This document shows positions 14,097 through 59,730 of a stretch of DNA of 64,000 nucleotides, piece by piece. Position 1 is the first letter of the stretch; each line of letters opens with the position of its first letter. Origin of the DNA: Yuukianura sp. NJ FZ-2021 (Eukaryota). Both the position numbers and the translations under genes were made by a program. The stretch lies in the NCBI GenBank assembly GCA_046563655.1, contig CM102283.1, positions 5,332,001-5,396,000 on the forward strand. The letters are read 5' to 3'. Under the pieces are notes generated by a model that was not told the origin of the DNA, did not search any database, and saw only the letters and a program-made list of their open reading frames with translations.

Positions 14097-17000
14097 ATGG
14101 GTGTTTCGGTGTAAGTTTTAGGCTAGTAACTAGTAAAGTACTTACAAAACTGAGCTTCACTAACCAACTACGTTAACTAACTGAACTTTAAAAATGTGTC
14201 CTCAACTCCTCCTAACTAGTATATGCTTGTACGTATAGCCTATTCTTTTGTAACACCTTGATATTGATTTCATGTAAATTTTGTAGCTTACAGGTTTACG
14301 TTGTTAAGGAAGGACTCACTGGCACCCAGACGATTGATATTCTGACTCAGCGTGTGCAAAACCTTGGAGGTGTTCAAACTGGACATTTCGTAGTAGACTG
14401 TGATTCATTCGTATGCCTCCAACCAGTCAGTAAGTCACTTTTCGTTAATCTTTAACAATTAATCGAGTACCTATTTAGCTCTCTAATCGTTTGCTTTTTC
14501 TCCGCCAATTCTAATTAGACGGCTAAGCAATTGAAAGTTACCATGCACGTTGTAACGATGTGGTAGTTTTTGCCGGTAATTTCATGGTTGAGGTTGATTT
14601 CTGAATGTGTTTTTATTGTCAACTTTTAATATGAAGTACTTATACCGAACTCTATTAAAATCACAGAATGGTGAGTGGTTGGATAATACACTAACCTAGT
14701 TATATGGAACAAACATCAGTTAACGTCTATTTTTCAGCCAGTTTTCTTAGTTTTACACTCGTGCCTAAACTTAAGCTAAGGGGTTGATTGGTGCTAGGCT
14801 GCACAATTCATGAATTCGCATCATCTAACATCTTGATGTTAATTGTTTAGGTTAATCGTCAAATTCTATTTAATTATTATTGTCTTTGTTATTTATTGTC
14901 TTAGTAAGTTTCATGGAAGCGCTCAACACAGTACTCTGTGGGGACTGGGAGGCTATGATTAGGTCATAAGGTTTCGCTGCCGCTTCTGATTGATAAATCT
15001 ACCCTAACTCTGTTTTTGATTTTAAGTATTTTGTAAAGCAGCGCCAAAAATTGAAGAAGTCCAGATCCAACTGTTCAATCGGAAACCCTGTCAGTGTCAC
15101 TGCTGCTGCGTCGTGAGTTATACGCGTCTCATGTGTGTATAATGGAAAAATTCACTCCGTTTCTTCGCACTTGCCTCATGCGCTAATACTGCTCGATTTG
15201 TGTCAGTCATGCCAGAATAACTTTCCTTTCCCTGTGCTTACTCATTCGCCGACATTTCGAATTGCCTTTTGTCGCCGTTAAACTGCATTTATAGAACTTT
15301 TTCTAAACTGCCACCGAGCGACGGGAAAGGGAAGTCAGCCATCGGCATCAGGTACTCCATTTGCATCTTTCACTCTCCTAAATAATGTGCGACTCAAACA
15401 GAGGTGCCTCTGAGTTGGTGTCTTCGTGGCAGTGGTAGGTAGTATGGACCGCCGTATGTTGTCACTTGAGGCGGAGCATGCGTGTAGGTGTGATACGTGT
15501 TATGATATTGCGGTGGTGGTTGCTGTTGATATCGATGGTGAAGTTGTTGAGTGTTTTGCAAGTAGGGAATGAATTCGTTCAGATGTGAGTAAGGATTGCG
15601 GTAGTGGTACTTGTGATATGAGTTGAACAGAGGGCGCTCTTTCATGTCTTCATACGAGTCAACGTAGTCGGTCTGGAAGTAGTCATGCGCTATGTTAGTT
15701 TGGAAACGACTGGCAGTTGGTGGTTGATACTCCTTCAAGATGGATCTGGGGCCGGGCTCTCGCTCAGGCTGAAGGGAATTCCTGATCAGCTGATGTCGCT
15801 GCGTCAGCTGACTTTTGGTTTGCGGCGTGTGGTGGAGTTGGTTGTTGTTTAGTGATGGTAGTTCTTGAAGATGTTCTTTGAGTATTGGGCGCGGAGAAGG
15901 TTGTGGTGGTGGCTGCTGCTGATTTGTTGTTGAGTGATTTGAGGGTGGGTGTGGCTGGTGGGATGGTGGGGCAAGGCCATGACTGAGGGTGGTGTCCATG
16001 TGATGCATCTCTTCCAGTTCCACTCCCTTTGTTTCTGGCACTGCGTAGCAAACGAAGAAGAGCCCTACGATGGATATGCCCGAGTAGATCCAGAAGGCTC
16101 CGTAAAGGCCAATGTGGGATTTAATATCTTCGTACGTTTTGACAGCCAGGAAGGCGCAGGCGTAGCTGAAGGAAGTACAAATGGCTCCACCAAAGGCCCT
16201 GTTTGGATTCAAGTATTTCGTTATTAGAGAGATTTGGATTTAAAATTGGCTCTTGACTGAAGTATTACAATCGTACATAGTATTTATGTTTTGAGCAACT
16301 AGATTGTTGAAAATATTGTAGACACTACTCGGTGGAGTTAAACTTTAAGGGCCATTATACGATGATTTTCATTATATTCGCTGCCGGCATGTTCCGTGAC
16401 TTTCATTGCTGTCTACGCCATGGTGGCAACTAGTGTTAAAACGTAACTTTAATGGCCAGTTCTACCATTGCCGGTTAAAGTTAAACTGAGTTTAGTGAAA
16501 ACTAGTTCCACCTTTATACTCAATTAACTTAATTATGTGTCAATTGATCTTGACATGCAAGGTATCAAAATTCTTGTATTCCTCCGCCGGTTAAACTCCG
16601 GTTAAATTTAACCGGCCGATTTTCTCCAGTTAAATTTTTTAATCTCCGGCTAAATATTTAAACACCGTTTACATTTATTAACCTGCAATGGTAGAACCGG
16701 GCATAAGTGGCATCATGAGTTAACACAACGTGTAGCCCCCCATTGTATCAACATAGTGGCTACAATGGTTTTCTGTAAAGTTAGCGTCAACCCTGGGAAG
16801 CTACACTCAGAATCAGGAAACCGAGGCCTCAACAAAGGCGTTTTTTAAGAATTGGCGCGTAACTTTGAAAATTCACCTAAATTCGAGCGGGAAGAGTTCT
16901 CCGACGAGGAGCCACGAGATGGGTCCGATGCCAATGGAGAAGAACAGTGTGAAGAACAGGACACAAGTGAGAGGGATCCAGTCGAGAGAAGGTCCGAATC

Positions 17001-20000
17001 CGGACTGTTTGGCGGGTAGAGACACTTCCAGCCAATTGTACAATCCAAATCCAAAAAAACTTCCCGATATGAAAAGGCTTGAGACAATGAGCAATGGGAG
17101 GCGACCTGCAATTGGCACAGTATGTTTAGGTTCAATTCAATCGCTGGTCATTTAATTTAAGAGTTGTTGATTACCGGCAGTGTCGATTAAAAGTCCAGAA
17201 GTCATTGAGCCCAGGAGTTGAAGAAAAATTACCACAATGGCAGCTCCATGAGGGTTAAGTGCTTTTCCAAAAACCTGAAGAAGATGATAAATTGAAAGTT
17301 AGGATTTTCTGTTTATTCCGCGTCAATGGCGCGAAGAATTTGTTTTCATATTGATAAGCATAACATGGGAAGGAAACGGAAAGCAACACCAGTCATTCAT
17401 AGTATGTCACTAACCATAATGACGTTTTCTTCTGACTCAATTCCAGGCAAAACAAAGGTTTCGTTGGGCTAAGGAAACAAAATTAAAAGTGACATGCGCA
17501 AAATAATTTTTGTAAAAACTAAAAAATGGGGGCTACCATGCTCATGCTGGTGTCTTCATCAGTTGTAAAATTAGCAGAATCTAGTGAATAGTTGCCTCTA
17601 TTGTAAACCTTAACAAAAGCAACCAAAACTTGATTTAGTACCTTCCAGCAACTAATTATTGTTACTTACATGCTGGAAGATGGGAACTGCGTAGTAGTTG
17701 AAGACCGTGACCCCTGAGAACTTATGAAAGAACATGAGTCCACATGTGATACAGAGAGGGCGCGTCAGTTGACTAGTTAATTTGGGTATGAGGCTCTTCT
17801 GCTTCGTCAGGATGTTGGATCGCAGGGTTTCGATTTCGGAGGGCACGTCTTCCTGACTTGACCTCAGCCATGACAGTGACCTTGTCGCCTCGTCTTCTCT
17901 TGAATGGTATAGAAGGAAACTCGGTGTTTCAGGAATTGCTAAAATTGCTAAGAAAAATAGAATCGGAACCACGGCTGCAGCTCCCGCCAGTTCCCTCCAA
18001 TCCAAAAAGGCTCCGAGAGAGGCAGAGCATAGGGCACCCAGTTGACCAGCCATTTTCAAAATGGCGCTCAAACATCCCCGAATCTCTGGATGAGAAATTT
18101 CACTCACGTAAACCTGCGAAGAAACAGTCTTTTAGTGGCGGGAATTTCAAATTGATGAGTTGTTTTTGAATCGGATTTAAAGTTTAACTTCGCTATTTGG
18201 TACCTGGGTGGCTAGCAGTATTGAGGCTGAACAGAAGCCGGCCAGGAATGAACTGCAGTACATCATTTCCACACATACTGCGAAAACAGTTAGAAACCAT
18301 GAGGCTGAAAAGGGCAGTGCGACAACCAACAGCGACATCTTTCGACCAAATTGCAGCAAAATCCCGCCAGCGAGACATCCGAAAATGGCGCCCAACAAAG
18401 ACAGGCTCGCAATCCATGAGGCTTCCTACGAACCAAACCCAAACCGTAGTTTTTAGAAAATCCCGCTTTTTTTTTCTTTGAATTTTTTTCCCTATGTTGG
18501 GAATATGTTTTTGGTTTTGCAGGGTTTCATGAGTTTTGCTTTTTCTTTTATGTTTTTTTACCTTTTTGGAAAAAGTTTAATGGTCATAGTTAGTATTTTT
18601 TTTTGTGGATAAGTTTTACATTTGACCTTAAATGTTGATTGGTAGAATGTGGATTTCGTTTTGTTCGTAATTGCCAAGGGACTGTTCACTTTATTACGAT
18701 AGAATCCAATGTCCTTTCGTCCAAATGAGAAAGTTTTATTGCCAACTCTCTAAGCATCTTATTCAGTACGTGAAGAGAGGAGAGAGACGGACGGAGAGTG
18801 AAAAACCCGAATTCGGTGTTTTTGGAAAAGAGCAAAGACTTTCTCCGAATTCTTCTAAGAGAAAGGAATGGAATTGGATCATTCCGGTTTTATGAGGCCG
18901 TTGACCAAATGTGGCTCTCTTTTGTTCGATTATTGGTGCCACTGCGTATTCGAAAGTCTATTTATGCGAATTGCGGCAGAGTGAGACATACTTGCACGGT
19001 TTATGTACTTTTGTGTCATTTGAACTAGTAGTTTTTATATTATATATTTTAAGTTTTTATGTTTATAAATGTAAACTTACTTGGGGAGATACAGGGAAAG
19101 TGGATGCTTTTGAGTCCTTGAGAGATGCCAATGCGGGACTCGTGTAGCCCTTCCCCAGTCCTGCTGCAAAAGGGCCCAAGCTCACTGCGAGCGTTGCCAA
19201 AACCTGGAAAGGTGAAAAATGCGGGTGAGTTCGTGTTTGTCCGGAGCTATTAATCTGCAGGAAGACAATGTCCTTATCATCGAACAGAGATGCAGCGACA
19301 TGTGACCAGGCTCTCGTTTTATCCCAATTTTCAAGTGGCACTCAACCAACCCCTAAAAACTTTTTGGCACAAATCCAATTTTTGGCTCAAACATGAAATT
19401 TTTAATGGGCATGAGAGATGGTCCACCTCAAATACTGGAGATAGGAGGAGTTGAATTTTGGAAAATTAGAAAAGATGTGTTCAAACAGACTTTGAATATT
19501 GGCGGGCTAAAACAGCGGCGGCGGGGCTTGGGCGGATGGTTACTAAGGATTCATTATAGATTTTTTCTTTTGAGCCATTTTTGCTCTTCTTTTCTTGTGA
19601 AGAATGTAAATGGGTTTAGTACGTTTTTTTCCTTGCAAAATAAAAGGGAGCGAAATTTAATTTCATGAAGCAGATCACGTTAGAACCCATTACTGTTTTA
19701 TGCTGAGGCTTCACATACGTTTTCTTCTCTCTTTTTTACTGTCGTCATCATCCAAAGCTTTCTGGATGACGCTAAAGAAAAGAAAGAGATGCTTTCGATC
19801 TAAATTGGAACGAAGCTAGGCGGGTCATTAAAACGAAATTGGAGCTAAAAGGCTAACGTCGTGATCGATTTTAGGAAAAAAAACATAATTGGGGCAGGTT
19901 GGAATCGAACTGAAAACTTTTAAAAAATGAGATACCCCTTTTACCGTTTCGTATCGGTTTTTAGAGTGGTTGTGTAAGTGTAGAAGGTGCGTAAAAAAGT

Positions 20001-23000
20001 AGGGCAAAGGACGGAAGCCATTTCGGTGCTACGCGTGGCAGAACCTTACTTTTGATTAGAATTCAGCACGAGTTTTTTGTTGATTACGGAGAAAGTGAGA
20101 TTGGGGCGAAGTGAGATTCGGGTTTCCTGGAGAAAGTCATGATTTTGCAAGGGGTTTTGAGATGTTAATGGGAAAGGAGGCGGGAATGTTGTGAACGAAC
20201 GTCGTCGTTGCTTACGTATATACTGTGTGGAGGTTTACTTAATCAAAGTCTTTTGAACCTTTGTTTTTGGTGGGAAGTTTGAATTTTGAGCCTTGATTTA
20301 AATTCAAAGGAGCTGGGGTGGATGTCGGAGCTTTTGTTTTGGATTGAGGTGGAAGAACAAGGGAATTAAATCGGATTTCCGTCTTTTTGTGCTGCGTTGT
20401 TTAGACAAAATAAACCGGTTGTAAACCGCCCATAATGATAATAGCTCAGGAATAAGGGGTTGCCCCCCAGGGGTGGGGGTGTCCCCCCACTTTTCCGCTC
20501 CCCAGGGGGAGTGGGGGTGTGTTCCCCCCTCATTCCCGCCCCCCCCGGTGGAGTGGGAGTGGTTTCCCCCCACTTTTTTGCTCCGCACCCCAGGGGGCGT
20601 GGGGATGGGTTCCCCCTACTTTTTAGCTCCGCACCCCAGGAGGCGTTGGGGTGTGTTCCCCGGGGGAGAGGGAGTGTGTTCCCCGGGGGAGAGGGAGTGT
20701 GTTCCCCGGGGGAGAGGGAGTGTGCTCCCCGGGGGAGAGGGAGTGTGCTCCCCGGGGGAGAGGGAGTGTGTTCCCCGGGGGAGGGGCGTGGGCTCCCCCG
20801 GTGGTGTGAGTGTGGGTCACCCGGGGTGTGTGACGGTGGGTCACCCGGGGGTGACGGTGGATCACCCGGCGCTGTGGGGTGGGTTCCTTCCGCTTCCCAG
20901 CTAGCAGGACGTTAATATGAAAAAAAAGTTGACCTTTGACCCGGAAGCAGGTCACTTGGGGTCATGTGATCTACACAAAAGTTGTTGGTGTCAATGAGAT
21001 GAACAACTTTTGTAGAGGTCATTTTCCGGGTTACCGGGGATGAAACCGGTTGACCTTGACCTTTGACCCGGAAGGAGTTGCCCCACGGGGGTCATATTCA
21101 ATAGTGAATAGGTCCGGGTCATGAGATGGTCACTGGTGAAAACCCGGTTGAAATTGGTCCAATAGTTCCGGAGAAAATCGTTCTAATGTTTTCCGGGACA
21201 GACGGACAGACGGACGGACAGACAAACCACTTTTATAATAATAGCTTCGCTATTATAATAAGGAAGGATAGCCTCTTGTCACTAGGAAATGACAGGGAGT
21301 ATGCGCCATTGAATCCACACTAAGATTAGTTCAACCGACTACTATACTACTGCCCGCATATGGTAGTACTACACTAGTTATCCGAATTCCGCGCCGAGAA
21401 AGAAACAGGAGAAATTAAGGATTTAAATCAGTTTTAACGAGACAAGGCTCTCTAGAAATGGGTTCTCTCTCAAACATTAAAATGTTTAACTTATCTTTTC
21501 CAACTGTTTTTCCATTCTAACACGCCCTCGTAATTCCAACTTTCCTACTAATCCCGAAAAGCACTAAAAAGTTCATAATCTGGATGCTAGAAGTCATTTT
21601 AGACAACGCGGAAGTCGTATTTTTAAGTTGGGTTTACAAACTGAAACTGCGAACTTCCGGAAAATACAAAATTGAAATTTAAAAAAAATAATGTCGTAGG
21701 TTCTGAAATTAAAGTTAAGAGTGTCGTTCTTACCTGCGTAAAATGTCGTGGAATTTTGGTGCGAATGACGGATAGGAAATTAGGCATCTTCTTTTTTCGC
21801 ATGATTTCAAGTTATGTTTTTGGAGGAGGACGAAAGCATGACGTCGTCGTTTCCATAACCCAGCGGAAGTTTGTTTTCTTGTCCCAATTTAGTTTTTTAA
21901 GTTTTGGCGGGAAGTTGGGTTTTTGTTGGAGGCAGCAAAAGTTAATTTGGTTGAAAATTGACGTGGGTTGCTGGATTTTTGGCGATGACAGGCAGGATAG
22001 GGAGATGAAATTAAACTTTGATTTCCATCTTGTGCTCCTTTCTTCTCAGGCAGTAACGTCCATCTCCAGGGAGTTTTTTTGAATTTCCCTCCAAATTAAA
22101 TATGGGCGAACCCCAGAGAAGCGGAAAACGACTTTTTGGCTCTGTGTTTAATGAATCGAAACAGAACTGTTTGGAAGCTGTGTTTCTAATGAGAAAATAA
22201 AAAAGAACATGGAGTCAAATGAGTACTCTGCTTGAGACTGTTTGTTACTTGGGAATTCTCCTGCTGCATCATCAATTCCACGCAAAATACGGAGGCAATT
22301 TCGGTTTTACGAATTTAGTCAGCTTTACGTTTCATTTACTTTTGGTCATTAGAACTTCTTCCAAGTAGTCGCGCTGGAACGTTCATGAACGGGTTCTAGC
22401 GAACGGTTTACACCGTTTTGTTACGGGTTTTTGTTGACAAAAAGTGTTAACTTTGTGAGAAAGCTAACAAGTGAAATGTATGAGTTGCCCAGTTCACAAA
22501 ATATTCATTGTGAACGTCCGTCCTAAACAGACGGTTAAATTAGGACGGAATTGCCAGTTTTGTAGCCTCGCAGTGTAACCACCATCGTTATTTTTTTTAG
22601 CGTCATGTGATAATGTAACCATAACTGGTTGCAATTCAATTCGTAGTTAATTAATTCCATTGTATTAGTACTTGTACTCCTGCTACCCACATGGTGGTTT
22701 GGTTAGCCAATTCTTTTCAAGACGGAATTGGGTACGGTTTATAACCACTTAATGTAACCACCTCCCCCGCTTTCATAACGGCATTTACATTAGAGGGAGA
22801 CAAAATTTAAAAATTGCTGGCGACTGCGCCTTTTCAACTACACATTTGTAACCACTGGGTGGTTCTGAATATTTTGGCGGTTGGTACACCAGAAGCAATT
22901 CCGCCGAACCCCAACCACAAATTCATCCAGGATTGTCCTGTCTTCCAGTTGCATCTGCACCAAGGCACACCCAAGCTACTTTTCTTTTTAGTTTTTAAAA

Positions 23001-29000: not shown

Positions 29001-31091
29001 TTTTCATTTCCTTCTTGCATCTTTTCTACATTTTTCCCAGGGAGCTTTTTCCCGAATTTCAGAGGAAGAGAACAGGAAATGAAAAACTTCAAAACTGGAG
29101 GGTGAAGTGAATTTTTTGAAGTAAAAAAAATCCTATCAAATTATAGAAACGTATCTCTCAAAGTGTCAAGGAAATTGTCAAAGAAAACAAGGCGCCTATA
29201 TGTTGCAGGCTGCGGTACATAAAGCAATGCTTTTTACCAGGTTCAATTTTTTTTCCAATTGCTAATACGGTATGACGCTTTTGCAGAGTGGTTTTTACAC
29301 CCTTTGAACTCTTTCCTAGAAAAATGCAAATTGGAAGCAGTTGTTGCAAATTCATACTTGCAGAAGAAAAGTGGAATTATGCTTTTGAAAGTGTGGAACT
29401 TGAAATGAACTTTATGAATATAAGCCGCAAAAGATGTAATTGCGAAGTAACTATATTTTTTAATTTATGAGTCCCATAACTAGTATGACTTGTCCACGAA
29501 AACTTTACTTAATTCACAAGCTATACATGTTATTGTGTTTTGATTTTTTAGTTTTCTTTGGAAGCGGGTGCCTGAGGAGATGTATTTTTTGTGTGATGTT
29601 TAAATTGTCGTTGCTATTGGGAAACCGGTTTTTGATGAACTGAAGATGATAAGAAGGATGGCACATGAAGATTTGAAAAAAGTCCATGGCTAAGCAACTT
29701 TTGGCAAAGTGTTAATTTTTATAATTGTAGTAAACCAGAGCAGTGGCTTTGGCAGATGAATTTATACGGTGCTGGTCCATAATTAATTGTACTTTTCGAT
29801 TGAATGCTGCACCTTTATGAGCAAGAGATGTAAATTAGATGTTGAGCACGCGATTCAAACTGCGCAGTAGATTGATTTCTTTGTCACGATCTTTATAGAG
29901 GAAATTAACGAAGCAGTCCTCTTAGGTATTTAGGTACTTGTTAGTTGTATGAGAGATTGGCAAAGTTGTTTACAATTTTGGAACTAAACAATTGTGCACA
30001 AAAAACTACCTAAGAAAAACAAAGCGTTTTATGATGAATTTAACGAATGGTTGAACTTATAAATAGAAATAAATAGAAATCCTTTTAAAATTGTCATTTT
30101 GTTTGTTCTTTTATAGTGGGAGGAAGCCAGGGTCAGCCTGGGCCACCGAGGACACTCAACGTTTTGCACAATTCGGACTACCCTGCCACGACTTTTGCTC
30201 TCCTCGAAGTCCCACTACCGAACATGCAACAACAAGCTGCTGCTGGCCAGCCAATTCAAACTTCGTACAAAACTGTTTCACTTGTAGCAGACAGTCTTTT
30301 TGATCTCATCGTTCCGAAACTCCAACCAACCTACACTCCGAAGAAGATCAAAATTGAGTCGAAAGGACCACGATTCGAAGTGGGGGACTTCGTGGTCAAA
30401 CTAGGCAGTGTCATCATGTCGCAGAGCTTCAAAGGCATTCTCGTAGAGGTCAGTGATAATTCCGATATAAAACTTATTTAAAACTTATTTAATTTCGTTG
30501 GAATACATTTTGAAACGTTTTTTTCCCAATTCTTATACGAAATTATGATGAAACGTTTTTAATTCGAATTTGTTTTCGTGATTTCAGGTGGAGTATCGCC
30601 CTTGCGTGGTTGCTGAAAGTTGCTGGGAGCTTCTGATGGAATTTGTCCAAGGAGTTTTAGGACAGAATGCTCAGACGATGATTCCCAGAACACTTCAGGT
30701 AATTGGTTGAGTAATCTTCAAACTTCTCTGATCTGTACTCTTACTTTTCCGTTGTCCTATCGAAGTTGCTAGGAAAATCTAAGTTTTTCCAAAGTCGACT
30801 AAAGGTTCTAATGAAATACTTTGTTAGAAAGTTTTTCTAGTTGAAAGGCCTTTGAAAAACTTTTGACTTTGTTCATTTGAGTTCTTGTGTTTCAAAGAAA
30901 TGAGAATTCAGAGAGGTTTTGAGCAATTTCGAGTCTTACGCGACGTAAGATCGGAGTCGGTTCGAAAATCTCAAGTGTTTGTGTTTTGATTTGACCAGAC
31001 ACGGATGAAGGACGTGTACATCCCCTTGGACACAATGCATCAATACATGGATCAATTCACTGGCTTCAGAAAAGCATCTGGGATCCGATAA
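14097..31091 (+). CDS. MED20: Mediator complex subunit 20; exons 14097-14110, 14287-14429, 30117-30448, 30588-30698, 30999-31091
   Basis: Spliced product MGVSVLQVY..GHFVVDCDS..VLHNSDYPATTFALLE..KIESKGPRFEVGDFVVKLGSV..KGILVEVEYRPCVVAESCWELLMEF..DTMHQYMDQF..GIR matches the MED20 consensus. All splice phases are consistent. Confidence 0.93.
15394..21802 (-). CDS. Facilitated trehalose transporter Tret1-like (MFS sugar porter); exons 21802-21734 (tentative), 19203-19081, 18425-18204, 18113-17670, 17274-17175, 17105-16877, 16198-15394
   Basis: Sugar-porter motifs GYTSPAL, FGRK, YVSEISHPEIRG, IPETP, IDTAGRLPLL, GIGPISWLLVGELFP and VPETKG; in-phase GT-AG junctions. Confidence 0.9.
20410..21260 (-). 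mobile_element. HINE/DINE-1-like non-autonomous element containing the minisatellite
   Basis: The minus strand starts with the hairpin ATAATAGCGAAGCTATTAT followed by a (GTCY)n microsatellite; repeated TGACCTTTGACCCGGAAG. Left boundary approximate. Confidence 0.5.
20651..20781. repeat. 23-bp minisatellite GTGTGTTCCCCGGGGGAGAGGGA, ~5.7 copies
   Basis: Direct tandem repeats inside a GC-rich island (20455-20900). Confidence 0.9.
24894..25139. mobile_element. Possible Tc1/pogo-type MITE
   Basis: Ends TACCGT..ACGGTA; internal repeats of GGGCGTTTACTCAAAA. Confidence 0.45.
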
Positions 31092-35141: not shown

Positions 35142-35614
35142 TAGAGATGCCGCGATTCGAGGATTTTCCCGCATCGCCTATTCAGCGATTCTTTGAACCC
35201 CCTGAATCGCCTTCGCGATGCATCGTCCATATGCATCGCGATGCATCGCGATTCACCGTTCGTTCCAATTTAATAATATTTCCACCAGGCGCATGGTGGT
35301 TTTCACTATCTCCTTATGGAAATTACGGGTTAAAAGGTGTTTCCTATGTCCCAGTTGCTGTTTAAACTTATAAACTAATCTAACCTAACAAAGTCCAGGA
35401 AAAAAACTGTTTAGATCGGCTCGAATTTCTTCAAATTTTCAAAAAATAACTCAACTAATAGGGAAAAAATCAACTTTTTTGAATCGCTTAATGAATCGCG
35501 ATGCAAGCGATTCTCCACATTTGAAAAAGGGCGATTCTAGTGCATCGCGCAAAACACAAAAGGGGGTGAATCGCGGGCGATTCATCGCTCGAACGATTCA
35601 TCGCGGCATCCCTA
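35142..35614. mobile_element. hAT-type MITE
   Basis: TIRs TAGAGATGCCGCGAT / ATCGCGGCATCCCTA; perfect 8-bp TSD CAGTTGAT; subterminal GCGATTC/GAATCGC repeats. Confidence 0.9.
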
Positions 35615-35976
35615 CAGTTGATGTGTGAAAACTTTCAATCTGTGGTGTTTAGAGCAATGATTAATTAGTAATTAAGGAGAGACTGTAGTCACACTACCAG
35701 CGGATCCTCCTCCTCAACCTCCTGTTACTTCGGTTTGTTGTAGTGTTTTTTTTAAGAATAAAAAAAGAAGTTGTGTGTCTGTGACTTGGTCACAATTTGG
35801 CCTAACCTGAGCTGTCAATTGTTCAGAATGATAAAAGCTAACGGCATCTGCAAGGGAATTCCCAAAAATCCAAGATGGCGGCCATCCTTATCAGCATCTG
35901 CATCTACAATTACGTTTTAAAACGTTTTTTGATGACGTCATCACCCCCCCCTACTTCCGCACCCCCATACCCCCCA

Positions 35977-36597
35977 CTATATATCCCTTCCCCCTATATC
36001 CACCCCCCCCCCACGTGACCCTGCCCCCTTCAAAAAAAAATACAACAATGGAAATTTTGGCAACAATGAGACTTTAATAAAAAGTTTGAAATTTTTAGAA
36101 TTCATTAAAAAATAATTTCGAAAATAATTATAATAAAATAATAATTTTGTACATCTACTCGTCCTCGTCGTCGTGGTGGGATGAGTCGGTTTCTGGCCTT
36201 GCCTTCTCCGTGGGGGCAAAGCCGCGGCCCCTGGCAATTGAGCTCGCTTCATAAATTGTTGTTTTTTCCCTCTAGGCTGATTCAAGTGACGCCTCTTCGC
36301 CCCCTTTCCTATGATATGGTGTGAGGTATCAGGGCATCGGCAGTGTTCAATTTTGTAACGTTCTGAGATTGGTTGGGAGGAACTGGCGTATTTTCCCCAG
36401 AGAATTTGACCGCGTTCGATTGGTACTCGGGTACGAACCTTGACACCGCATTTTCCGTTCACCTGGCAAGCCTCGTACCTTATGTTGCGAACCTTTGGGT
36501 TGCATGCGTGATTAATGAATCGCGCAGCGTTGCCACGTTTTCGAGCGTCGATGTACACGTTTTTCCTGACTTCGAAGAGATAGTTTGTGAATACTGG
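35977..36597 (-). pseudogene. SET-domain lysine methyltransferase, C-terminal half (NSD/ASH1/Set2-like motifs)
   Basis: NYLFEV..YIDARKRGNAARFINHACNP..PIERGQIL..Y..CRC. The N-terminal SET motif is absent. Confidence 0.8.
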
Positions 36598-36599
36598 AA

Positions 36600-38257
36600 A
36601 TTGCCAAAAAATCAAAAATTAGCATTTGAAATCCAGCATTTAAAATGCGACAAAGCGTACCCTTTCCCACAACCTTGGAGAATTTGGTGGATGAACTCGT
36701 GGCTTCAAATCACAAATTTCCAATAATTTCCAAGTTTTTAAGAGACGAAGGTCAAGGTCAACTTGACCCACAGTGGTTTCTAACACGAAAAGTGCAGTTT
36801 CCGAAATTTAGTTCCTTGCAAGAGTTTCTTTCCAACTACTGGGCCCAAGACCCGCTGCCAAAGGAAAAATTTATTCAAATTCTTGGTGAAAGTGCTTCAG
36901 AAGAGTCTGTGTTTGTTTTTGAGGTGTATGCCAAGTCGAATCTTTTGAAGTATTTGAAATCGCTGTTAAGTGTCCAGTGCCTAGTGCAAGCTGAAGTTTT
37001 TGAAAAGCAACGAAGCATCAATTGGAACGAATTTGGCCTTGAACTGGCCGGAAGTTGGACAATAAACAGCTACGCTTTCAACGCTGCTGCCTACATGGGA
37101 AAATTTGGAAAATTTGAATACTTGAATGACGAACAGTTTATTCAGGACGTGGACAGGGGATTAATGGCGGGAATTCAAGTTTTAAACAAACGAAAAGTCT
37201 TGTGCAACACTGACAGGTATGGCGCAGAATATTTTGACCCCACACGACCTCGAATCGAGTGTCTAAGTTGTGACGTGACCGGTAGCTACCCTTCCGTGTG
37301 CCTTGGGCCCTTGCCCTATGGTGATTACCGACAAATGACTCCGGAAGAAATTGCGAGTTTTGACTTTGTAAACCCCATATGGGCCGAATAAAGTGGATTT
37401 GTTTTCGTGTGTGACATTCACTTTCCCGACACGAAAAACTTTCTGATTTAGTTTGTCCCCCAGAAAAAAAACGAGTTTTGTTTGACAATCTGTCAAAAGT
37501 TCGATAAGAATTTGTGAAAAGTAGTGACAAGAAATTGTCACACGAATTTCTACTTTTGAGTCTAACGGACAAGACTGAAATTGTCCTTCATCATCAGCTT
37601 TTGGCAATGACGTTGAGATTGGGCGGTGTGTTGACCAAAGTGCATCGCGGATACAGTTTTTCCCAAAGGCCACTTTACGCAGAATATATCCAACACAATT
37701 TAAATAAGCGAAAGTTGGCGAAAACTCGAACTGAAAAGGAACTAGCCAAATTGGCCAACGTGAGTCTTTCCGGAAAGTGTTTAAGTGATCCTGCCATGTA
37801 CAATATGGACCCTCAGCTTTGCAAAACTTCTGTCAAGGCCAAATCTCTCCTCGCTTCAAGCAATTTTGCAAGTTTTGAAATTGTTAATCACAACGTGACG
37901 CTGTTTCACATGAAAAAGAAAAAGGTGTTTCGAAAATACCTAAAATTGATTGTATTCGTCATTTACAGTGTTTCAAAAGCAGTGTTGTATTCGTACGTCT
38001 ACGATTACATTTATCCTGCATTCAATTACAAAATGGAGCTGGTCATGTGTAATACAGACAGTTTCATGGGAGTTTATCAGGACGAAGATGGAGACTTTCT
38101 TGAAAAGTTGAAGAGTCTCGCCGAAATTTTTGATTTTTCTGACCAAGATGGTGAGCTCTACGACAATCGAAATGTAGGAAAGGCGGGAGTTTTCAAAATT
38201 GTAAATCTAAACATCAAAGAAGCCTTTCTGCTTTCTCGCAATCAATGGCTAATTTGA
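36600..38257 (+). pseudogene. Protein-primed family B DNA polymerase remnant (Polinton/Maverick-like), truncated at both ends
   Basis: Collinear motifs LTRKVQFP, LVQAEVFEKQR..FGLE, motif A DVTGSYP..PLPYG, LTKVHRG..FSQRP, motif B KLANVSLSGK, motif C CNTDS, FDFSD..GVFK. Stops and a frameshift at 37389-37510. Confidence 0.85.
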
Positions 38258-38360
38258 CACCGAGTTTTATTACTTTTGTTTTGTCTCGGCCGGGAGTTGT
38301 TTTTTCACTTGGCTTAGTTGCGTTTCAAGTCTGATTAGATAGTCTTGGAAAAAGAAAACA

Positions 38361-38926
38361 ATGGGTAAGCCCACTTACAAATATTTCAAATTTAAACCTA
38401 AATTTAATTTTCGGAAGTTGTACAATTTTGAAAACTTGTTTTTTTTAAATACACAGACTGCACAAAGCAAACTTCCTGTGTAAACTGCGTGAGCGGGCAA
38501 TGTTTTTGGTGGATCAACACAAATGGCCAGTCTGGATGCGTGGACGACGTTGATAAAGTTCCGAACCTCGAATTTGTAGTGGCCGAGGGTGACGCTGGGG
38601 ACTGCCCGAACGAACCGACCCCAGTACCAGGAGAGTCTTCAGCATTGGCGTGGACGGGGTCAACTCTTTCGGGCAAGTCAAATTAAAATCTGTTTTTTTT
38701 AAGTAAAAGTGCGCAACTAAAATTTAGACCCAGAGGGAGGCAACTAACATTTGATTTGTTTTAAATTTCAGTTGGTCTGGTCATTGCTTTGATGTTCATC
38801 GTCTTCCTTGAACGGAAAAGACAACCAGTGGCAGCGGCAAAGCGACGGCGCATGCGACGTTTATCGCAAGACGCCGTGGAGCTCCAAAGCATCGATTTAA
38901 ACACAGAAGAAACTTCTATGCTATAA
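38361..38926 (+). CDS. Small Cys-rich (PSI-like) single-pass membrane protein A; exons 38361-38364, 38457-38672, 38772-38926
   Basis: Phase-1 junctions (second donor GCAAGT) give MDCTKQTSCVNCVSGQCFWW..LAWTGSTLS-VGLVIALMFIVFL-ERKR. Confidence 0.55.
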
Positions 38927-39196
38927 TTGTTATTCGATTAAAGACAATGACATTCTTTGTGTTAGGAAAGCTTTCGAATTATAGTCTGACCTTGTTGAAT
39001 TAACAACCATTTGTTTGTGAAATTTCAAATTACATTTCCTTTCCAACCCCGACTAGTTGGGTTGTTTCAGTCAAGTTTGAATTTTCAAATAACCTAAAAT
39101 GTTGCAAATCATTCTTTTTGGATCGATAGGTAAAACTTGGTTTTTGATAAAACAAAAAAAAAATTAGAGTAGTAGGTTAACATAATGTAATTGTAG

Positions 39197-39471
39197 GAGC
39201 CTTGGGGTTGCTGGTCGTTGGGCTGGCAGTGGCGCCTTGTGTCGCTTGCCGGCGCATGCGTCGAGGTCAACCAGATTACACTGAACTCAGTAAAATTAGA
39301 ATTCTTCACCGACGTGACACGGGTCGCTCTGGCATCTACATTGGCTTAAAAGACCTCGTCCCTCCAGAATCCGCACGGGAAATGGCACCAAAAACATTAC
39401 CTGAGTTGGCAAGCGCATCACGCCTGAAAATTCCTCCCCCTCCGCCGTTGCCGCCAAGTCCTCAAAAATGA
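39197..39471 (+). CDS. Second TM plus cytoplasmic exon (alternative 3' exon or paralogue remnant)
   Basis: TTGTAG acceptor, phase 1; ALGLLVVGLAVAPCVAC-RRMRR..DYTEL..poly-Pro. RRMRR is shared with gene A. Confidence 0.45.
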
Positions 39472-40109
39472 CCTTCCACAGTACAAGCCACCCACCAACA
39501 ATCGAAACAAATTTTTTGAAATTACGAATACGGAATTTAATTTAAAATGACTCAAAATCTTAAAAAGTCTAAAATCTACAAAGTTTCGGAACGACAGAAA
39601 CAACATGAATAAACTCGAACATCGGAAATAAAATTTTTCAAAGGATTGCAATTTCGAATGGTGACTATTTTTTTTATTCGTAATAAAAATTGCAAAAATT
39701 TATTCAAATTTATTTTATAAATGTGACTAAAATTGAAAAATAGTAAAGGTGAATACTTATTGAAAAATTTTGAATAAAGAAAAAATTGCATTGAATTGTT
39801 AGGTGTTGTTGAAATTTGAAGTGAAATTGTTGAAATTTGAATAATCTCAATTGATGGTGTTTACTCTAGGAATCCTTTTGGGCGTTTTCCCTCAGCCCCA
39901 TCTTTGATTGGCTACAAACCAAAATTTATTTTCGACTTGGAAAATTAAGAAAAGAAAAATGCTTCACTCCAAACTATTTTCCTCTTACCTCGAATTGCCT
40001 GCACTGCTTGTCGACGTCGAAGTGACTCCCGTGCTAGCTCCTCCGCATGGTATTCGAAAAGCTCGCGGTCTCTATCTACGACGGGCTGCCGCGGGGAAAA
40101 TGGCATCAA

Positions 40110-40394
40110 TCACCTTGAACAAGAAATCCGAGAATCGTAGAATTCGCAATGGAACAATTTTCCAACCCCAACAGTGCGTTTGACACAATCCCTTGCCGGT
40201 CGAAATGTCGAATTTCTTGTGTTCGAACGCACAAAAAAAAACTTGACACCGCCGATAAATGCGGCGGCAAACTCAACAAGCTTTTGCTTGAAAGTTGCAA
40301 CTAATGAGAACGCTGGCACCACAGGTGAGTCACACCCACAGTCCCAATTGTCGCAACCATAGACTGACTCCTCCTTGGAAAGAAATTGCCCCAT
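40110..40394 (-). CDS. Hypothetical Cys-containing protein with a possible N-myristoylation start (MGQFLS)
   Basis: ATG ORF just inside the right TIR; weak similarity to a peptide at 43039-43230. Confidence 0.3.
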   Translation of the reverse strand: MGQFLSKEESVYGCDNWDCGCDSPVVPAFSLVATFKQKLVEFAAAFIGGVKFFFVRSNTRNSTFRPARDCVKRTVGVGKLFHCEFYDSRISCSR

Positions 40395-40736
40395 TTTCGT
40401 GGAAGGAAGTACTGTGGAAAGAACTAACGAGCGAATAAATGAAAACTAAAACTCACAAACCATAGTATTGTCCTCGAAACAAAAAGTTTGTAGCAAATAA
40501 AAAAAACAAAAGAGAAACCACGATGACGTCATCAAAAAACGTTTTAAAACGTAATTGTAGATGCAGATGCTGATAAGGATGGATTTTTGGGAATTCCATT
40601 GCAGATGCCATTAGATGATAAAAATGGCGAAACACTGAGAAATCCAATTGTATGAGCACTTTTATTATGCTCAAGTCTTAAAATTTCTTAAAACTAACAA
40701 TTGTGATCACACACACGGGAGGGAAGAGACAAGAGG

Positions 40737-43020
40737 TGTTGTTGGCTCAGTGGCTGGACAGACTATGTCCCACTGTGAGGAGTAAAGACTCCACACACGT
40801 CCACAGTCAACGCCAATAGGAGGGTTGACTTTGTCCACACCGAAGTGAACGCTCTCTTAATGGGCTCTCCAGCCAGACTCAAGGCTGACCCCTCCAAGTC
40901 AGCGCTCACCCTGACCTTGACTTTTAACTCGTTTTATGAGTTCTCGCTTTGTCCTTGGTTGACTTTGCAAGTCAACCATGGGCAAATCACAAAATCTACC
41001 AGAGCCGCAAACACTCCCACTTGATGTACATAGTACATCATTACACTAAATCCTAATAACCTACAGGGGGTACTTAGGGACACTGGAATCTTCTGGAAGG
41101 GGAATGATTTTAACTAAAATTTAATCTAAATTTTTGAAAAGAAAACAAATGAATTTTAGAATTAAATTTCCAGAAATAGGGACTACACTCACTCACACAT
41201 TCAAATAATTTTTATTTGAACTAAATCTTAGGAGTTATGTCTATGTACCGTCTTTGATTTGAAGTGGGGAAACCTTGGTGATGGGGCGGTTGTACGTCTT
41301 GATGGTGACCTTCCGTTTGTTGTCAGTCACTGGAACATGGACATCGCAGACTCTGACGAGGTTGTCCTTACCAGGGCACACTGCAGCGATACGTCGAAGC
41401 GTCCATTTTTGTGGTCCGAGGTCAGAGTCGCTGTCATTCAGCAGAACCAACGTTCCAATTCCAAGGTTTTCTTGCTCTGCAAACCACTTTGGTGTTTTCT
41501 GCAGAGTCTGGAGGTACTGGGAAGACCAACGTTGAAGTGCTGCGCCATTTGCTGGACATGTTGCCAGCGGGTCAATTGATGAACTTTGAATCCATCCAAG
41601 TTCTCCTGTGGTGCAGCCTTCAAAGTTTGTCCAATTAGGAAATGGCCGGGAGTCAGAGCAGAGAAGTCGGCATCCAATGACAATTGGGTCAAAGGTCGAG
41701 AGTTATTTATTTATTTATTTATTATGCCAATCGGGCACTCAGCCCACGGGGCCATGGTAATCGTTTAGTACATGAAAGTCGGATTATAGAGTCTGGCTAT
41801 AAATTAATTTACATAATAAATAAAAGTATAGCAGTTGGTATCTTCTTGCCGTAGTTTTGGTTGGTTGACCAGTTCAGAGGCTGTCTCGGACGGATTGACT
41901 AATTTACTATCTAGCGTTGTGTCAGCCGAACTGTTTCACATCTCCTTCAAAACTAAAAGTCGCCATTTTTCCGATTAGTCACATCCCATTTCAAGCCATG
42001 TAACGCATGTCCTTTCCTTCTTCCTTTTGTTGATGGACTAATTTAGCTTAGATGTGACTTAATAGACTAAATTAATCAATAATAATTAACTACTACTAAA
42101 GGTCGAGAGTTGAGTGTTGCTTCAATTCGTTTCAGAAGAGTTCAGAACTCTTCAATGGAGAGACCATCGAGTCACTAGCGACACGATGGAGATGAACTTT
42201 CATGGATTTCACTCCAGCTTCGAAAATCCCGCCAAAATTTGGGTGGGTTGACGATAAATTCCACATTCTGATCCACGAAAAACTTGGAGACTTGGTTAAC
42301 ATGTGGAGTGGAAGTGACAAAATGCTGGAAAGTTTCAACTTCGTTTTTTGAGCCCAAAAAGTTCCTCCCACCATCACACAAAACTTTTGAAGGGCAGCCT
42401 CGGGTTGACACAAAACGATTGAAAGGACTTATGAACGCGGGAGTGGAGAGGTCACTGGCAAACTCCAGGTGAATTGCTTTGACCGCTAAGCAAACAAACA
42501 CTGCTACATAGGCTTTTAGCAATTTTGGATTTCGTCCGGAGGTAGCATTCACATGACATGCACCAGCGTATTCCACACCGACATAGGCGAACGGTAAAGT
42601 TGGAGTCACGCGGGAAGTAGGCAGTTGACCCATCTTCTGTCCCATCACTTTTGGATTGACTTTGTGACACTGCACACACTGTCGTACAATTGATGAGCAC
42701 AACTTTGGTCCATTCGAGATCCAAAATTTGTCACGGACAAGAGAAAGCAGAAGTTGTGGTCCAGGATGGTTGTTGGCATGGTGCACATGTCTGATGACAC
42801 AATTTGTGAAATGGTGGTTCCGAGGGAGTAAGATGGAATGCTTTTGGTCATATGACCAGAAACTATGACGAAGTCTCCCTCCCACCATTAAAATTCCATT
42901 TACGTTAGGAATGGCATAAGGGATTTTAGATTTTACGGTACTCGGTGATGTATTTTTACGCCGGCACCAGTCCAACTCACTTGAAAATGTATCCATTTGG
43001 ACACAACGAACTAGAAGGAT
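40737..43020 (-). mobile_element. Truncated, degraded BEL/Pao element (integrase, DUF5641-like C-terminus, PPT, 3' LTR 40737-41013)
   Basis: VGGRL, HPGPQ..C..C, VGVEYAG, CDGGRNFLG, GGIFEAGVKSMK, LTPGHFLIG, GKDNLVRV; PPT AAGTGGGAG followed by TGTTTG..CAACA. Confidence 0.85.
41705..42097 (-). mobile_element. Short non-LTR retroposon insertion (SINE or 5'-truncated LINE) inside the BEL remnant
   Basis: 14-bp TSD AAAGGTCGAGAGTT (41691-41704 and 42098-42111); (TAAA)n 3' tail. Confidence 0.8.
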
Positions 43021-44035
43021 AGGAGTTCAGAATTAATTCAAACTTTTGGCTACCAAATCTAGTCGCCATTTTCTTGAACCAATTGCCCCCAAGGGCGGGA
43101 ACACGATTGGTCTTGTTTATAGCAATGCGCTACGAATTTCGCATTGGACTCGACATTGCAACGACTTGGAGTTGCAACTCGTTTGTCCTCGAAAGCTGTT
43201 TTTTGAAGAAAAATCCCAAGTTGAGCTAATTACAAATCCGTAAATCATCCGATGTGGAATTGAATCTAATACTTCAACTCGTTTGTTAAGGTGTATTAAT
43301 ATCAAAATCTTAATTTCAATAAAAACATCCAGTAACAATTACAACACTCGGTGTTGTAATTGTTATATCGTAATTTTATTTTAGCATTTCACAAAGCCAT
43401 TTTGGTAAGGGAGAGGTGGAGTGGCGGAGTTTGGTGGATAGATTGGAGGGAGTTGGTAACCGTCTTTCTGCCGGTGGACCCTTTGGAAGCGGATGCCAAA
43501 GAGAGAGATGTGACTTTGACAATCGGTGTGGTGGTGGTAATCGTCGACGAACACGACGATGACGCGCAGCAGTATTAAATGTTGGTCATCGTCGTTTGTT
43601 TCTCCGTATCTGGTGCCTGTTCCCTCCTAGCCTTGCGGGCTGACGCCTTGTCTCGCTTAAGTTGATTCAGATACCTCCACTTGTTGGGGTCATCCTTGAA
43701 ATATAAATTTGTATTGTTTTTCGTCTTTATAATCGAGATTCCGAGGTTTATGAGCCCAGATGGCCCTGGCCCTTGCTTCAAAGCCGTGGGCATAATGCAC
43801 GCAACGAAAGAAGTTATTGTCATAAGCCTCGAAAATAAAAAAAAAGAAACTAAATGTAAAAATTTAGACCATTGAAAGAATGGCGTATTCGGTAATGTTC
43901 AAACCGAGTGAACCTTGGTTTTTGACCGTCAAGTTAATTTTCAAGGAAGCACTTCACACTTCCCTATATAAGAAAGGTTAGGTCTAAGTCGATCTTCAAT
44001 CTTTTAGCCTCAATCCGAACTCGACATCAATAGAA

Positions 44036-44677
44036 ATGAGACTGGGTGAGTGATTGATAAAAAAAGACTTTAAAAATCATACTTTTCAAATTCAAACGTT
44101 TTTTTTTTTAAAAAAAAACAGAATGCGCCAAAATAGCCGAATGTGGAGTTTCCGTTGACAGCGGTTGCACTTTTGTGCAAGTCAACCAAAGCGGGGAATG
44201 TATCGCATCCCTCCTAGATGCTTCCGGTACAGTGACGTTTGCAGTTGGACACAACCAGCGCGGAGGATGCAAGAAGGAAGCGCCAACATTTACAGCCGGA
44301 TCATTCGCGTTTTCAGAATTGGCATGGCACTTGCCAGTAATCGGTAAACGTGCAAAAAACAAATTCCATGTCATTTTTTTTCGAAACTACGATGCAACTT
44401 GTAACGAATTAAAGGAGTGTTGCTGTTTCTACTACTGATAGTATCATTGACTCTGTGCGACTACTGCATTCGAAATAAGAGATCGGGGTCAGCATATGCC
44501 CAGGTCCCAGATGACGCAGCGATTATAAGTAGCATTAGGAGACTGGAGAACAGAAGTGGAAATGGACAATATCACAAGCTACAAGAGATTAGGCCTGAGC
44601 CACTGGAGCCGAAACCACGAAGGGCCAAGATAATCTCTACAATTTCTAGCAGAATCCCTCCTGCGCACTTTACATAA
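44036..44677 (+). CDS. Small Cys-rich single-pass membrane protein B, paralogue of A; exons 44036-44045, 44122-44343, 44415-44677
   Basis: TATATAA ~70 nt upstream; phase-1 junctions; ECAKIAEC..C..C..FAV..GGC..E..SELAW, TM segment, tail with YAQV and YHKL. The last acceptor is weak. Confidence 0.55.
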
Positions 44678-57316: not shown

Positions 57317-59730
57317 TTATTTTGCAAACGTTTCTAAAAGTTGTCGGAATTCGTCGCACTTCGGTTCCAGTTTGAGGATTTGCTCTGCCTCCTTCCCATA
57401 TTCCATAATTTTTGTATGCTCAGAAGCACTTAACGACTCGTAATGCCGCTTCATCTTCAGTCCTCGTGATAAGTAAAACAGAATGATACCTAATTGCCAC
57501 AAAATAGGTTAATTTAAATATAGTAATATCGTCGCACTGCGTAAATAAAATAAATGGTACTAATCTTAAGTTCTTAACATCGTTTCACCTCTATTTCTAG
57601 TCATGCCTGGAGTGAGCTTGTCAAAAATGAAAAAGACGTTCGTTGCAAGTTTCAGGAAGATTCGTGCTAACTCCGCCTGATCTTTGTGCGTCCAAACGCT
57701 TTCATTTGAACAAACTTGATCTGGTGTGTCAATGATGGTATGGATGGTAGCAATCATTGCAGTTTTTATGGGTAGCAAGGAATAGTGGTTGGGATGAATG
57801 ACATCCTTGCCCAACCTATCAATTGTAGCGTCCATTTTGATGATATAGTCCGACTTAATGGAGAGAAGTTCTGGGCTATCCATGGGAAGCTTATCTCCAT
57901 CTGAAGAGTAAAATTCAAGTTCACTAAACAATGGATCATCCACTGTCATCTGCGTCGATTCGGCTACTTGACGCAGCGCTGGAAAAACAAGTGTGTTGTA
58001 GTTCCACTTTTTTCGGCATTCTGGGCATGTCCATGACGATGATAAGTCTAACGGTTTTTCTGGCAGCACAAACTTTCCTTGTCGCCGACATTTTTTCGTT
58101 TGGCACAAAATTCCTGAGAAATTCGTTTGGAGTTCAGAAGGATCCTGGCAGCGAGAACAGGAACAAGTAAACCAGTAAATGTTTTGAAGCAATTCTTGAC
58201 GTCGATGTGTTCCTGTGAGGAGACTTCCATAGAGTTGCGTCAACACCGAGCCTGCTGCGATTCCCAAAGTCGAAACTACAATGAGCTTGGAGTCGACGTT
58301 TGTCGTAACCTCGTCGGTTTCGGAAGACGTCTGAGCCATGCTCCGCGTGTTGGGCAAACATGAATGTGAGATTTTGCTTCCAAGTTCGTAGAGTTTGACG
58401 TAGAATCTGCAGGTTTTAATAAGAAATATTTATTAACCACAAGATTTAATGTTAGGAAATATGATTTTTTTTTCAGTTCAAGCTTGTTTACTTAGAAGCG
58501 TCACTGTATCCGTTAACGGTTAACATGCCATAGATTTTTTCAATTTCTTCAACACCAACATCAAGCAGTTTGCAGCGACCAAGTATGAAATTTGTAGCAC
58601 CCAGAATCTTGTCGAGTCCTTGAGGTTGACGACGTATACTTTCGCGGTGGAATTCAAATTTTGAGAATTTGTTCCACAAAGTTTCGTTTTTTGATTTCAT
58701 CAATACGCACCGAAGGATTGTCACAAACAAGAATTCATCTTCTGAAGATGGACGGCCCACTTGATTCGACTCGAATATTTTGCACTCGTAGTCCTGATGC
58801 CACGGATTCTAGAAGAATCAAGAAAGTAACTTTTGAAATTTTAGTCTCAAAAAAAGTTACTTTGTGTCGCCGAGATTTACCTTTTTTTTTAAAATAACGC
58901 TTCCTGGTTCTATTTAATTTTTTTTTGAATCATAGTTTTTTGTTTTATTATTGGAACTATGTTATGACTTATGAGCTATATGTGTATGGCTTCGGGCTGT
59001 GGGAAAAATCAATTAAAACAAATCCGTAGTTGATTGACAATTGCATTTTAAAAGTAGAACTCCGAAAGGGAAAAAAGTTTGATTACAAATCATTAATCAA
59101 CAGTCACGACTCGGCATTTGCTTTGACAGTTTTGCCTGAAAAGTACTAAACTGGGACAAAAGTCAGAAATTGAACAAAGTGATACTGAATGAGTGGCAGT
59201 GGTAGTCATAAACCTTCAGCTTTACTCGTTTTAGGTCACAGCAGTATGAATACAATTACCACCAGGATCTCTTCAGCAACTAACTAACTCATCCATGTTG
59301 TCATTTTTACAAAGATTCCTTTGAACACAAACTGTGCTTATAACGTAGTATTTCCAACCTGGTGACATTTGGATCCACACATTGGCCACTGACAGACTGG
59401 ACACGAATGGGGCTCCGTAGGAGAAACCAAATTGCAGCATCCCAGACAAACTTGCGCTGCTTTTGCCAAATTACTGCGTGGGCCAACCACGATTGGTTTC
59501 TCTGTCCAAATGACTTCACCACATGAAATGTCCCTGGTAGCCACCAGATGATGGCCTAATGTTTGTGTCCATTCCACTTTGACTGGGTGACATATTGGTT
59601 TGTGGGCCCTTCGGTCGAACTTCTGGTGATTCTTGGAACAGTAACTCACTTTTTTGCAATTCGCACAGGTCAAGGTGCAAGGGTCAAGACAGAAGGCGCA
59701 CAGTCCCGGGCTACTCGTATCTGCACTCAT
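57317..59730 (-). CDS. SET and MYND domain protein (SmydA/SMYD-like); exons 59730-59359, 58808-58492, 58406-57589, 57489-57317
   Basis: N-terminal MYND (CAFC..CANC..YCSKNHQ..HKPIC), GHHLVATRDI..GEVI..EKP, second Cys cluster, SHSCLPN, Y..RRQELL..YWFTCSCSRC. Splice phases are consistent. Confidence 0.92.

Follow-up and report, generated by a model that had tools for sequence, protein, structure and literature searches.

What kind of mobile element encloses, between inverted ends, a piece of a virus-like DNA polymerase gene and a piece of a SET-domain methyltransferase gene, and what enzyme moved it? The locus that raises this question lies in a stretch of 64 kb from Yuukianura sp. NJ FZ-2021 (GenBank assembly GCA_046563655.1, contig CM102283.1, positions 5,332,001 to 5,396,000 of the forward strand), here called the window, in which an element of ~4.78 kb occupies positions 35828..40623, target-site duplications (TSDs) included. 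A sequence-only reading of the window had left two alternatives: an internally deleted copy of a large, undescribed self-synthesising or virus-like element, or a capture element resembling Pack-MULEs (gene-capturing Mutator-like elements, MULEs). The evidence assembled here leans to Pack-MULE-like capture, with a lower weight kept for the deleted self-synthesising element, because a dead polymerase lies between terminal inverted repeats (TIRs) that are still ~98% alike, the SET exon starts at a splice acceptor, and the interior pieces occur at unequal depths and in reshuffled orders. The element is most likely a fairly ordinary kind of transposon, moved by an enzyme that is encoded elsewhere.

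The ends of the element are well marked. A repeat search paired 35882-35942 with 40522-40582 (61 nt, 100% complementary) and 35838-35872 with 40580-40614 (35 nt, 94% complementary), and a global alignment of the two arms gave 91 identical bases among 93 aligned and a single indel of 12 nt, present in the left arm (105 nt) but not in the right (93 nt). A 26-nt degenerate pattern drawn from the termini matched the window twice, against no matches expected from 100 shuffles, which bears out the ~100-bp TIRs first proposed from the letters. The 9-mer GCATCTGCA, found twice in each arm, occurs only once more in the window (four of five occurrences lie in the arms; 0.36 expected in 64 kb). When the element was compared by BLAST with the 64-kb window, only the element itself and its own arms were returned, with no third copy of the TIR, and the TIR patterns gave 0 matches in each of the viral_contigs and metagenome_contigs collections.

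The same 9-mer, ATGATAAAA, stands on both sides of the element; the duplication measures 9 bp, or 10 bp with one mismatch if the G at 35837 is counted. Five public runs containing the stretch were found, four (X1–X4) from one sample of organism A and one (X5) from organism B, and the contig sets of X1, X2, X3 and X5 were aligned to 35300-41100 at 80% likeness. Empty-site contigs, two in X2 and one in X3, join 35827 directly to 40615, skipping 4787 bases and leaving one copy of ATGATAAAA; 9 (X2) or 7 (X3) letters fit either side of the joint, and the X3 contig has 94 letters on its shorter side. The 9-bp TSD of the sequence-only reading is thereby upheld, and the empty site that it had proposed to look for is present, possibly in paralogous copies of the flank. 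Allele or paralogous flank alike, these contigs fix the boundaries of the insertion. Contigs from three runs span the interior and both ends of the element, and other contigs link the two flanks through 21–34 different letters. No hairpin or MITE (miniature inverted-repeat transposable element) structure was found in the flanks, nor was a second copy of the flanks found within the window. The element was inserted as one unit into repeated sequence, with 9 bp duplicated.

Some contigs hint at relatives of these ends. Three X1 contigs diverge at 35905, inside the left TIR; high-depth contigs of X2 and X3 have a different letter at 35906; and a 280-base X2 contig, with 6 differences, terminates exactly at the end of the element (40614). 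The branching at 35905 and the 280-base contig suggest more copies of the TIR. If the element is an ordinary TIR transposon, its family may have been active recently, the ends still being ~98% alike.

Judged from its reading frames, the element encodes no recognisable mobility enzyme. Among 97 frames of at least 30 aa in the element, a single one, that of the SET piece, matched Pfam at E ≤ 0.01; transposase, integrase, capsid, ATPase and protease were all absent from the 97 in this Pfam search, the sensitivity of which is limited for Polinton capsids. This agrees with the earlier statement that no transposase, integrase or capsid gene is present. Outside the element, open reading frames (ORFs) were compared with Pfam in two batches, one of 17 frames (10 matched) and one of 119 frames of at least 80 aa (4 matched); 15 of 134 frames were left out of the second batch, as they overlap, out of frame, either the long ORF of a retrotransposon or an exon of the sugar transporter. 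No DNA transposase and no Polinton protein was found among the scanned ORFs, and the only rve integrases were those of retrotransposons at 7619-12904 and 42178-43026. Rfam gave 0 matches to the whole window.

The polymerase piece was recognised through its relatives. As direct queries, both of its frames found nothing significant in Pfam, PDB or PHROGs, and frame 2, used in a word-indexed search among longer proteins, found none. An exhaustive phmmer search with frame 1 returned 226 proteins at E ≤ 1e-3 (7 at E ≤ 1e-10), the best at 5.7e-16 and 29% identity, with residues 14-251 aligned to 580-819 of a 1203-aa protein. Ten of the 14 best relatives were compared with Pfam: DNA_pol_B_2 was matched by 3 (best E 2.3e-29), Endonuclease_7 by 5 and no family by 3. 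A profile built from 12 relatives matched phi29 DNA polymerase (1XHX) at E 1.2e-4. A second profile, for the protein-primed polymerase (pPolB), was built from the 40 best matches of at least 1000 aa and searched against all six-frame pieces of the window of at least 20 aa; it found frame 1 at E 1.6e-41 and frame 2 at E 1.1e-51, the nine further matches (E 0.034 to 9.4) being noise. Judged through these relatives only, the family assignment is sound, and with it the pPolB remnant that the letters alone had suggested.

The remnant is badly decayed. It lacks 527 profile positions at the start and ~100 at the end, the N-terminal exonuclease part included. Against the profile of 40 relatives, RGG has become MAG at a (nearly) invariant site, the Asn and Tyr of motif B (NSxYG) are replaced, the first Asp of motif C (DTD) is Asn and the ExoIII Asp is lost; an active protein-primed polymerase would conserve the catalytic ExoIII Asp, motif B and motif C, and this copy does not. 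By these substitutions and losses the piece is a dead remnant that cannot work. With the TIR arms still alike at 91 of 93 positions around a degenerate polymerase, the element probably made its last move after the polymerase had died. The simplest reading of TIRs ~98% alike around a truncated, broken and degenerate polymerase is a last move made with the polymerase dead and the enzyme supplied in trans.

As to the Endonuclease_7 matches, nuclease insertions in Polinton polymerases are described from nematode, oomycete and mollusc elements (PMC10748475); the pPolB region able to carry such an insertion is absent from the element, and a literature search found no paper uniting protein-primed polymerase, Polinton and endonuclease VII. 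One polymerase relative (P0001) had no relative in viral_contigs. A metagenome contig of 10.5 kb (L001, 1-10461) belonging to a distant relative (P0007) carries PIF1-like helicase pieces in three frames, a BIR+RING (IAP-like, that is, inhibitor-of-apoptosis-like) gene and, directly upstream of the polymerase frame, a 537-aa frame without a Pfam match; it shows no integrase or capsid and is uninformative on the element in the window.

The second recognisable piece of the interior is the SET exon, a single exon that would be the last of its gene. In the frame 35980-36618 (-), Pfam SET is recognised at E 1.2e-7 (32.6 bits; cut-off 22.4) over profile positions 37-98 of 105 only; the frame's best PDB matches, over the same half, are SET1, MLL, SETD2, NSD3, EZH2 and ASH1L (E 1e-6 to 1e-4), and in the Atlas it falls among SET clusters at 0.93. 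The SET fragment read earlier is real, but the claim that the element carries its own chromatin modifier is unsupported for this copy, which has the C-terminal half only: the N-terminal half is in none of the 97 frames and there is no complete SET domain. The frame has no near-length protein relatives. On its strand the match opens directly past a tttccag acceptor (~36604), and ~45 bases separate this point from the start of polymerase homology; the SET exon and the polymerase piece are divergently oriented, and both are without their 5' parts. Two X1 and two X5 contigs share only 36332-36603 or 36111-36586 with the element, at ~85–87% identity and inside longer contigs. From a dispersed gene-family exon one would expect homology of just this kind, confined to the exon. 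A SMYD-like gene within the window (57569-59766, -), which has both a MYND zinc finger (Pfam E 7.3e-8) and an NHSC stretch resembling SET, was considered as a source of the exon and rejected (24% identity over 50 residues, E 0.012).

How the pieces are distributed in the sampled DNA bears on their origin. Contig depths in X1—which, by the tool's own warning, are sums over contigs and not copy numbers—reach 69-82 in the SET piece, 87-198 in the polymerase, 82-103 in the stretch 38210-38597 and 37.7-47 in 38598-40343, the last mostly in one contig; the approximate relative depths are ~3-5x for the polymerase, ~2x for SET and 1x for the right half. As depth differs by segment, the segments do not share one copy number, and diverged copies of the polymerase and SET pieces exist without the right half, those of the polymerase being 85-95% alike. 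The order of pieces varies as well: contigs of X2 and X3 join 39518 to 36083 via 9 other letters, and one X5 contig carries 39333-39457 and, ~230 bases beyond it, 36603-36332 turned the other way round. A SET piece limited to one exon, depths that change from segment to segment and orders that vary all indicate that the cargo is a mosaic.

The explanation that we favour, and to which we give about an even chance of being right, is a non-autonomous cut-and-paste TIR transposon with Mutator-like hallmarks and a mosaic interior of the Pack-TIR type, moved by an enzyme supplied in trans. The TIRs would be bound, perhaps at the two GCATCTGCA motifs of each arm, by a DDE transposase whose gene lies elsewhere in the genome; this enzyme would excise the element and reinsert it through a staggered cut of 9 bp, and repair of the resulting gaps would yield the duplication; the interior pieces would have been captured from other loci, in the manner of Pack-MULEs or Pack-TIRs, and would not be remains of the element's own genes. 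MULEs are described as having TIRs of >100 bp and TSDs of 8–10 bp, their non-autonomous members often carrying host fragments (PMC5225508); here the TIRs are long (105 nt left, 93 nt right) and the empty-site joint gives a TSD of 9 bp. Pack-TIRs have been reported in 100 animal genomes (PMC8277862). The element shares with the Pack-MULEs of plants and the Pack-TIRs of animals its long TIRs, a duplication in the 8–10-bp range, the lack of a transposase, truncated gene pieces that include an exon with its splice acceptor, and pieces whose copy number differs from that of the element; it departs from them in that a virus-like polymerase gene, rather than a host gene, is the source of one piece, and in its large interior (~4.6 kb) with three orphan frames resembling whole small genes. 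Muta1 of Aedes aegypti, an active animal MULE, is likewise described as making 8- or 9-bp duplications with no sequence preference (PMC5225508), but it encodes its own DDE transposase, and the likeness drawn here is one of features. Mutator and Maverick families are both recorded in Daphnia pulex (PMC2884549), which is background only. If this explanation is true, the element is one more animal TIR transposon shuffling gene fragments, with the mild twist that its cargo includes a virus-like polymerase piece.

Several observations weigh against Pack-type capture by a Mutator-like element. No superfamily's transposase was found among the frames compared with Pfam, so that the Mutator assignment draws only on the lengths of the TIRs and the TSD, and Merlin elements make 8–9-bp duplications too. 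No parental locus was seen for any interior piece in the contigs examined; at a likeness of at least 80%, 38598-40343 is represented in X1 by the element's own copy only, which speaks against a captured host gene there unless its parent has been lost or has diverged too far, and the three orphan frames resemble complete small genes with splice sites, unusual as Pack-type cargo. The depths that separate the segments are the summed values already described, and the empty-site contigs may be other copies of the flanking repeat, not an allele. Lastly, elements that bear pPolB are described as naturally having TIRs of 100-1500 bp (PMC10748475).

Some of these points lend weight to a different account, possible but doubtful, in which the element is an internally deleted and decayed copy of a larger, undescribed Polinton-like or virus-like element, with an enzyme of its own that makes 9-bp duplications and with small membrane proteins and a SET methyltransferase among its gene products. 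The published size of Polintons is 13-25 kb, with TIRs of 100-1500 bp and TSDs of 5-8 bp (PMC10748475); the pPolB piece here, 29–33% identical to proteins of ~1200 aa, does lie between TIRs of ~100 bp, within that range, but the element has only 4.8 kb and its 9-bp duplication falls outside the 5-8 bp. The divergent SET exon and polymerase, both without 5' parts, look as they would after one deletion between divergent genes, and the remaining frames are orphans without homologues, as is common in virus-like elements; yet the 97 frames hold no remnant of an integrase, capsid, ATPase or protease, and the polymerase is truncated, broken and degenerate, its catalytic residues lost while the TIRs stay ~98% alike. 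The sample contains several copies of polymerase-like sequence, and the X2 contig ending at 40614 and the branching at 35905 suggest further TIR copies; against this, segment depths are unequal, the right half is single-copy in X1, and SET homology in other contigs is limited to the exon, as in a dispersed host gene family. The account keeps its weight because no parental locus was seen, the right half was met in this element only and the orphan frames look whole. Polinton termini are AG..CT, those of the element CTAA..TTAG. Save for TIR length and the polymerase remnant, the element fails every Polinton feature.

A bolder form of the same idea, which we consider decidedly unlikely, would make the element a stripped-down member of an undescribed animal family combining pPolB, a SET chromatin modifier and small membrane proteins with a 9-bp-duplicating enzyme (a Mutator/IS4-type DDE transposase, not a retroviral-like integrase): a transposon–virus hybrid, analogous to Teratorn on a Polinton-like backbone. 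Teratorn, which joins piggyBac to a herpesvirus, is a precedent for a cut-and-paste transposon united with virus-derived replication genes, (PMC10175614), but is ~180 kb long with intact viral genes, in contrast to the dead polymerase fragment here. Were the hybrid real, it would point to a new route for polymerase-bearing virus-like elements into animal chromosomes, and a mobile element bringing a histone methyltransferase would bear on how host chromatin silencing is evaded or exploited. Unlikely, too, is a change of carrier with the same passive cargo, either another cut-and-paste superfamily that makes 8–9-bp duplications (Merlin, for example) or a composite in which two end copies move a genomic segment. 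The lengths of TSD and TIR are not enough to tell a superfamily, and we know of no superfamily motif that the CTAA..TTAG termini fit, which we count in favour of another superfamily; the evidence from the cargo is the same as for Pack-type capture. TIRs of >100 bp with a 9–10-bp duplication are nevertheless the classical Mutator combination, as described for MULEs (PMC5225508), and by direct reading neither TIR arm is by itself a small element with inverted ends of its own. That there was no mobile insertion at all, but an inverted repeat arisen by chance, DNA rearranged locally or an error of assembly, is very improbable. Run contigs do differ from the window: a 1848-base X1 contig over 38817-40582 has 8 differing letters in 1766 bases and 1 gap, and at 38809-38817 contigs of all four runs have 43 letters where the window has 7, an in-frame difference of 36 bases; given this length difference and the 8 letter changes, window and sampled DNA are not identical. 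The inverted repeats (61 nt perfect, 35 nt at 94%) are nonetheless far beyond chance, the 9-mer is exact and stands once where contigs join flank to flank precisely, and three runs have contigs over both ends and the interior.

The coordinates of the element's parts are collected in Table 1.

Table 1. Parts of the element and its target duplication, in window positions; gene entries are models.
Feature	Positions	Strand	Details
Left target-site duplication copy	35828..35836		9-mer ATGATAAAA; 9 letters at joint 35827->40615 fit either side
Single G	35837..35837		Element's first base, or mismatched 10th duplication base; sits between ATGATAAAA and CTAA
Left terminal inverted repeat	35838..35942	+	105 nt; begins CTAACGG; two GCATCTGCA motifs; palindrome GATGACGTCATC at end
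C-rich low-complexity tract	35943..36050		Adjoins left TIR; direct reading
SET-domain exon, C-terminal half only	36332..36604	-	Open frame 35980-36618; tttccag acceptor before exon on its strand
pPolB piece 1	36630..37388	+	Profile positions 528-758 of 1151; motif A included
Broken pPolB stretch	37389..37507	+	Stop codon and frame change; profile positions 759-815 unreadable in one frame
pPolB piece 2	37508..38254	+	Profile positions 816-1048 of 1151; motifs B and C, altered conserved residues; last ~100 positions absent
Small Cys-rich single-pass membrane gene (model)	38361..38926	+	Exons 38361-38364, 38457-38672 (GC donor), 38772-38926
Second small membrane gene (model)	39099..39471	+	Exons 39099-39129, 39197-39471; proline-rich tail
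MGQFLS open frame	40394-40110	-	94 codons and stop; begins 125 nt inside right TIR
Right terminal inverted repeat	40522..40614	-	93 nt; terminates ...CCATTAG
Right target-site duplication copy	40615..40623		9-mer ATGATAAAA, exact

Of the remaining interior frames, the MGQxxS frame noted earlier is present as the MGQFLS frame, with a start that we take to fit the N-myristoylation pattern MGxxxS. The spliced Cys-rich membrane genes stood in part: for both, the sequence allows in-frame GT-AG and GC-AG splice models that include hydrophobic segments, but they have neither homologues nor RNA support, the five runs including no RNA data, and they remain models. Neither these two gene models nor the MGQFLS frame matched Pfam; the second membrane frame had no near-length homologue and the first no usable Atlas match. 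A fold predicted for the Cys-rich exon with no alignment was too uncertain to use (mean pLDDT, the predicted score of the local distance difference test, 51.1), and a guess that this exon encodes a PSI-like domain found no support. In the first small gene model, the 36-base length difference at 38809-38817 falls just past its predicted membrane segment. Host-side, a gene model at 44037-44676 (+) has the same architecture as this first membrane gene—a tiny exon, a Cys-rich exon and an exon with a hydrophobic segment and tail—and no sequence similarity was found between the element's Cys-rich frame and that gene.

The target of the insertion (35494-35827 and 40624-41100) is itself a repeat, its depth being several times that of single-copy sequence in organism A; in organism B the flanks reach depths of 490-1888, against ~5 for single-copy stretches. 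A BEL/Pao fragment at 41244-43026 (-), with integrase zinc-binding and DUF5641 matches, lies ~600 bases to the right of the insertion, and the repeated flanks may belong to it, for example as its long terminal repeat. Another member of this group, at 7619-12904 (+), is a single 1762-aa frame with DUF1759, aspartic protease, RVT_1, Peptidase_A17, integrase zinc-binding and DUF5641 matches, and looks like an intact BEL/Pao retrotransposon.

Taken together, the window's SMYD-like gene, Med20, carbonic anhydrase, sugar transporter and BEL/Pao retrotransposon mark the host as an animal. Elsewhere in the window, a G+C-rich island at 20307-20961 (GC 0.547 in 20001-21000, against ~0.40 around it) is open in several frames on both strands, with proline/glycine-rich repeats and no Pfam match. 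Sugar transporter exons of the major facilitator superfamily lie at 15397-18425 (-; Pfam Sugar_tr in four frames). Further host exons match the Mediator subunit Med20 (30089-30478, +; E 1.1e-21), carbonic anhydrase (60817-62795, +; E 6.8e-25) and, weakly, the C-terminal subdomain of an arginine methyltransferase (3-659, +).

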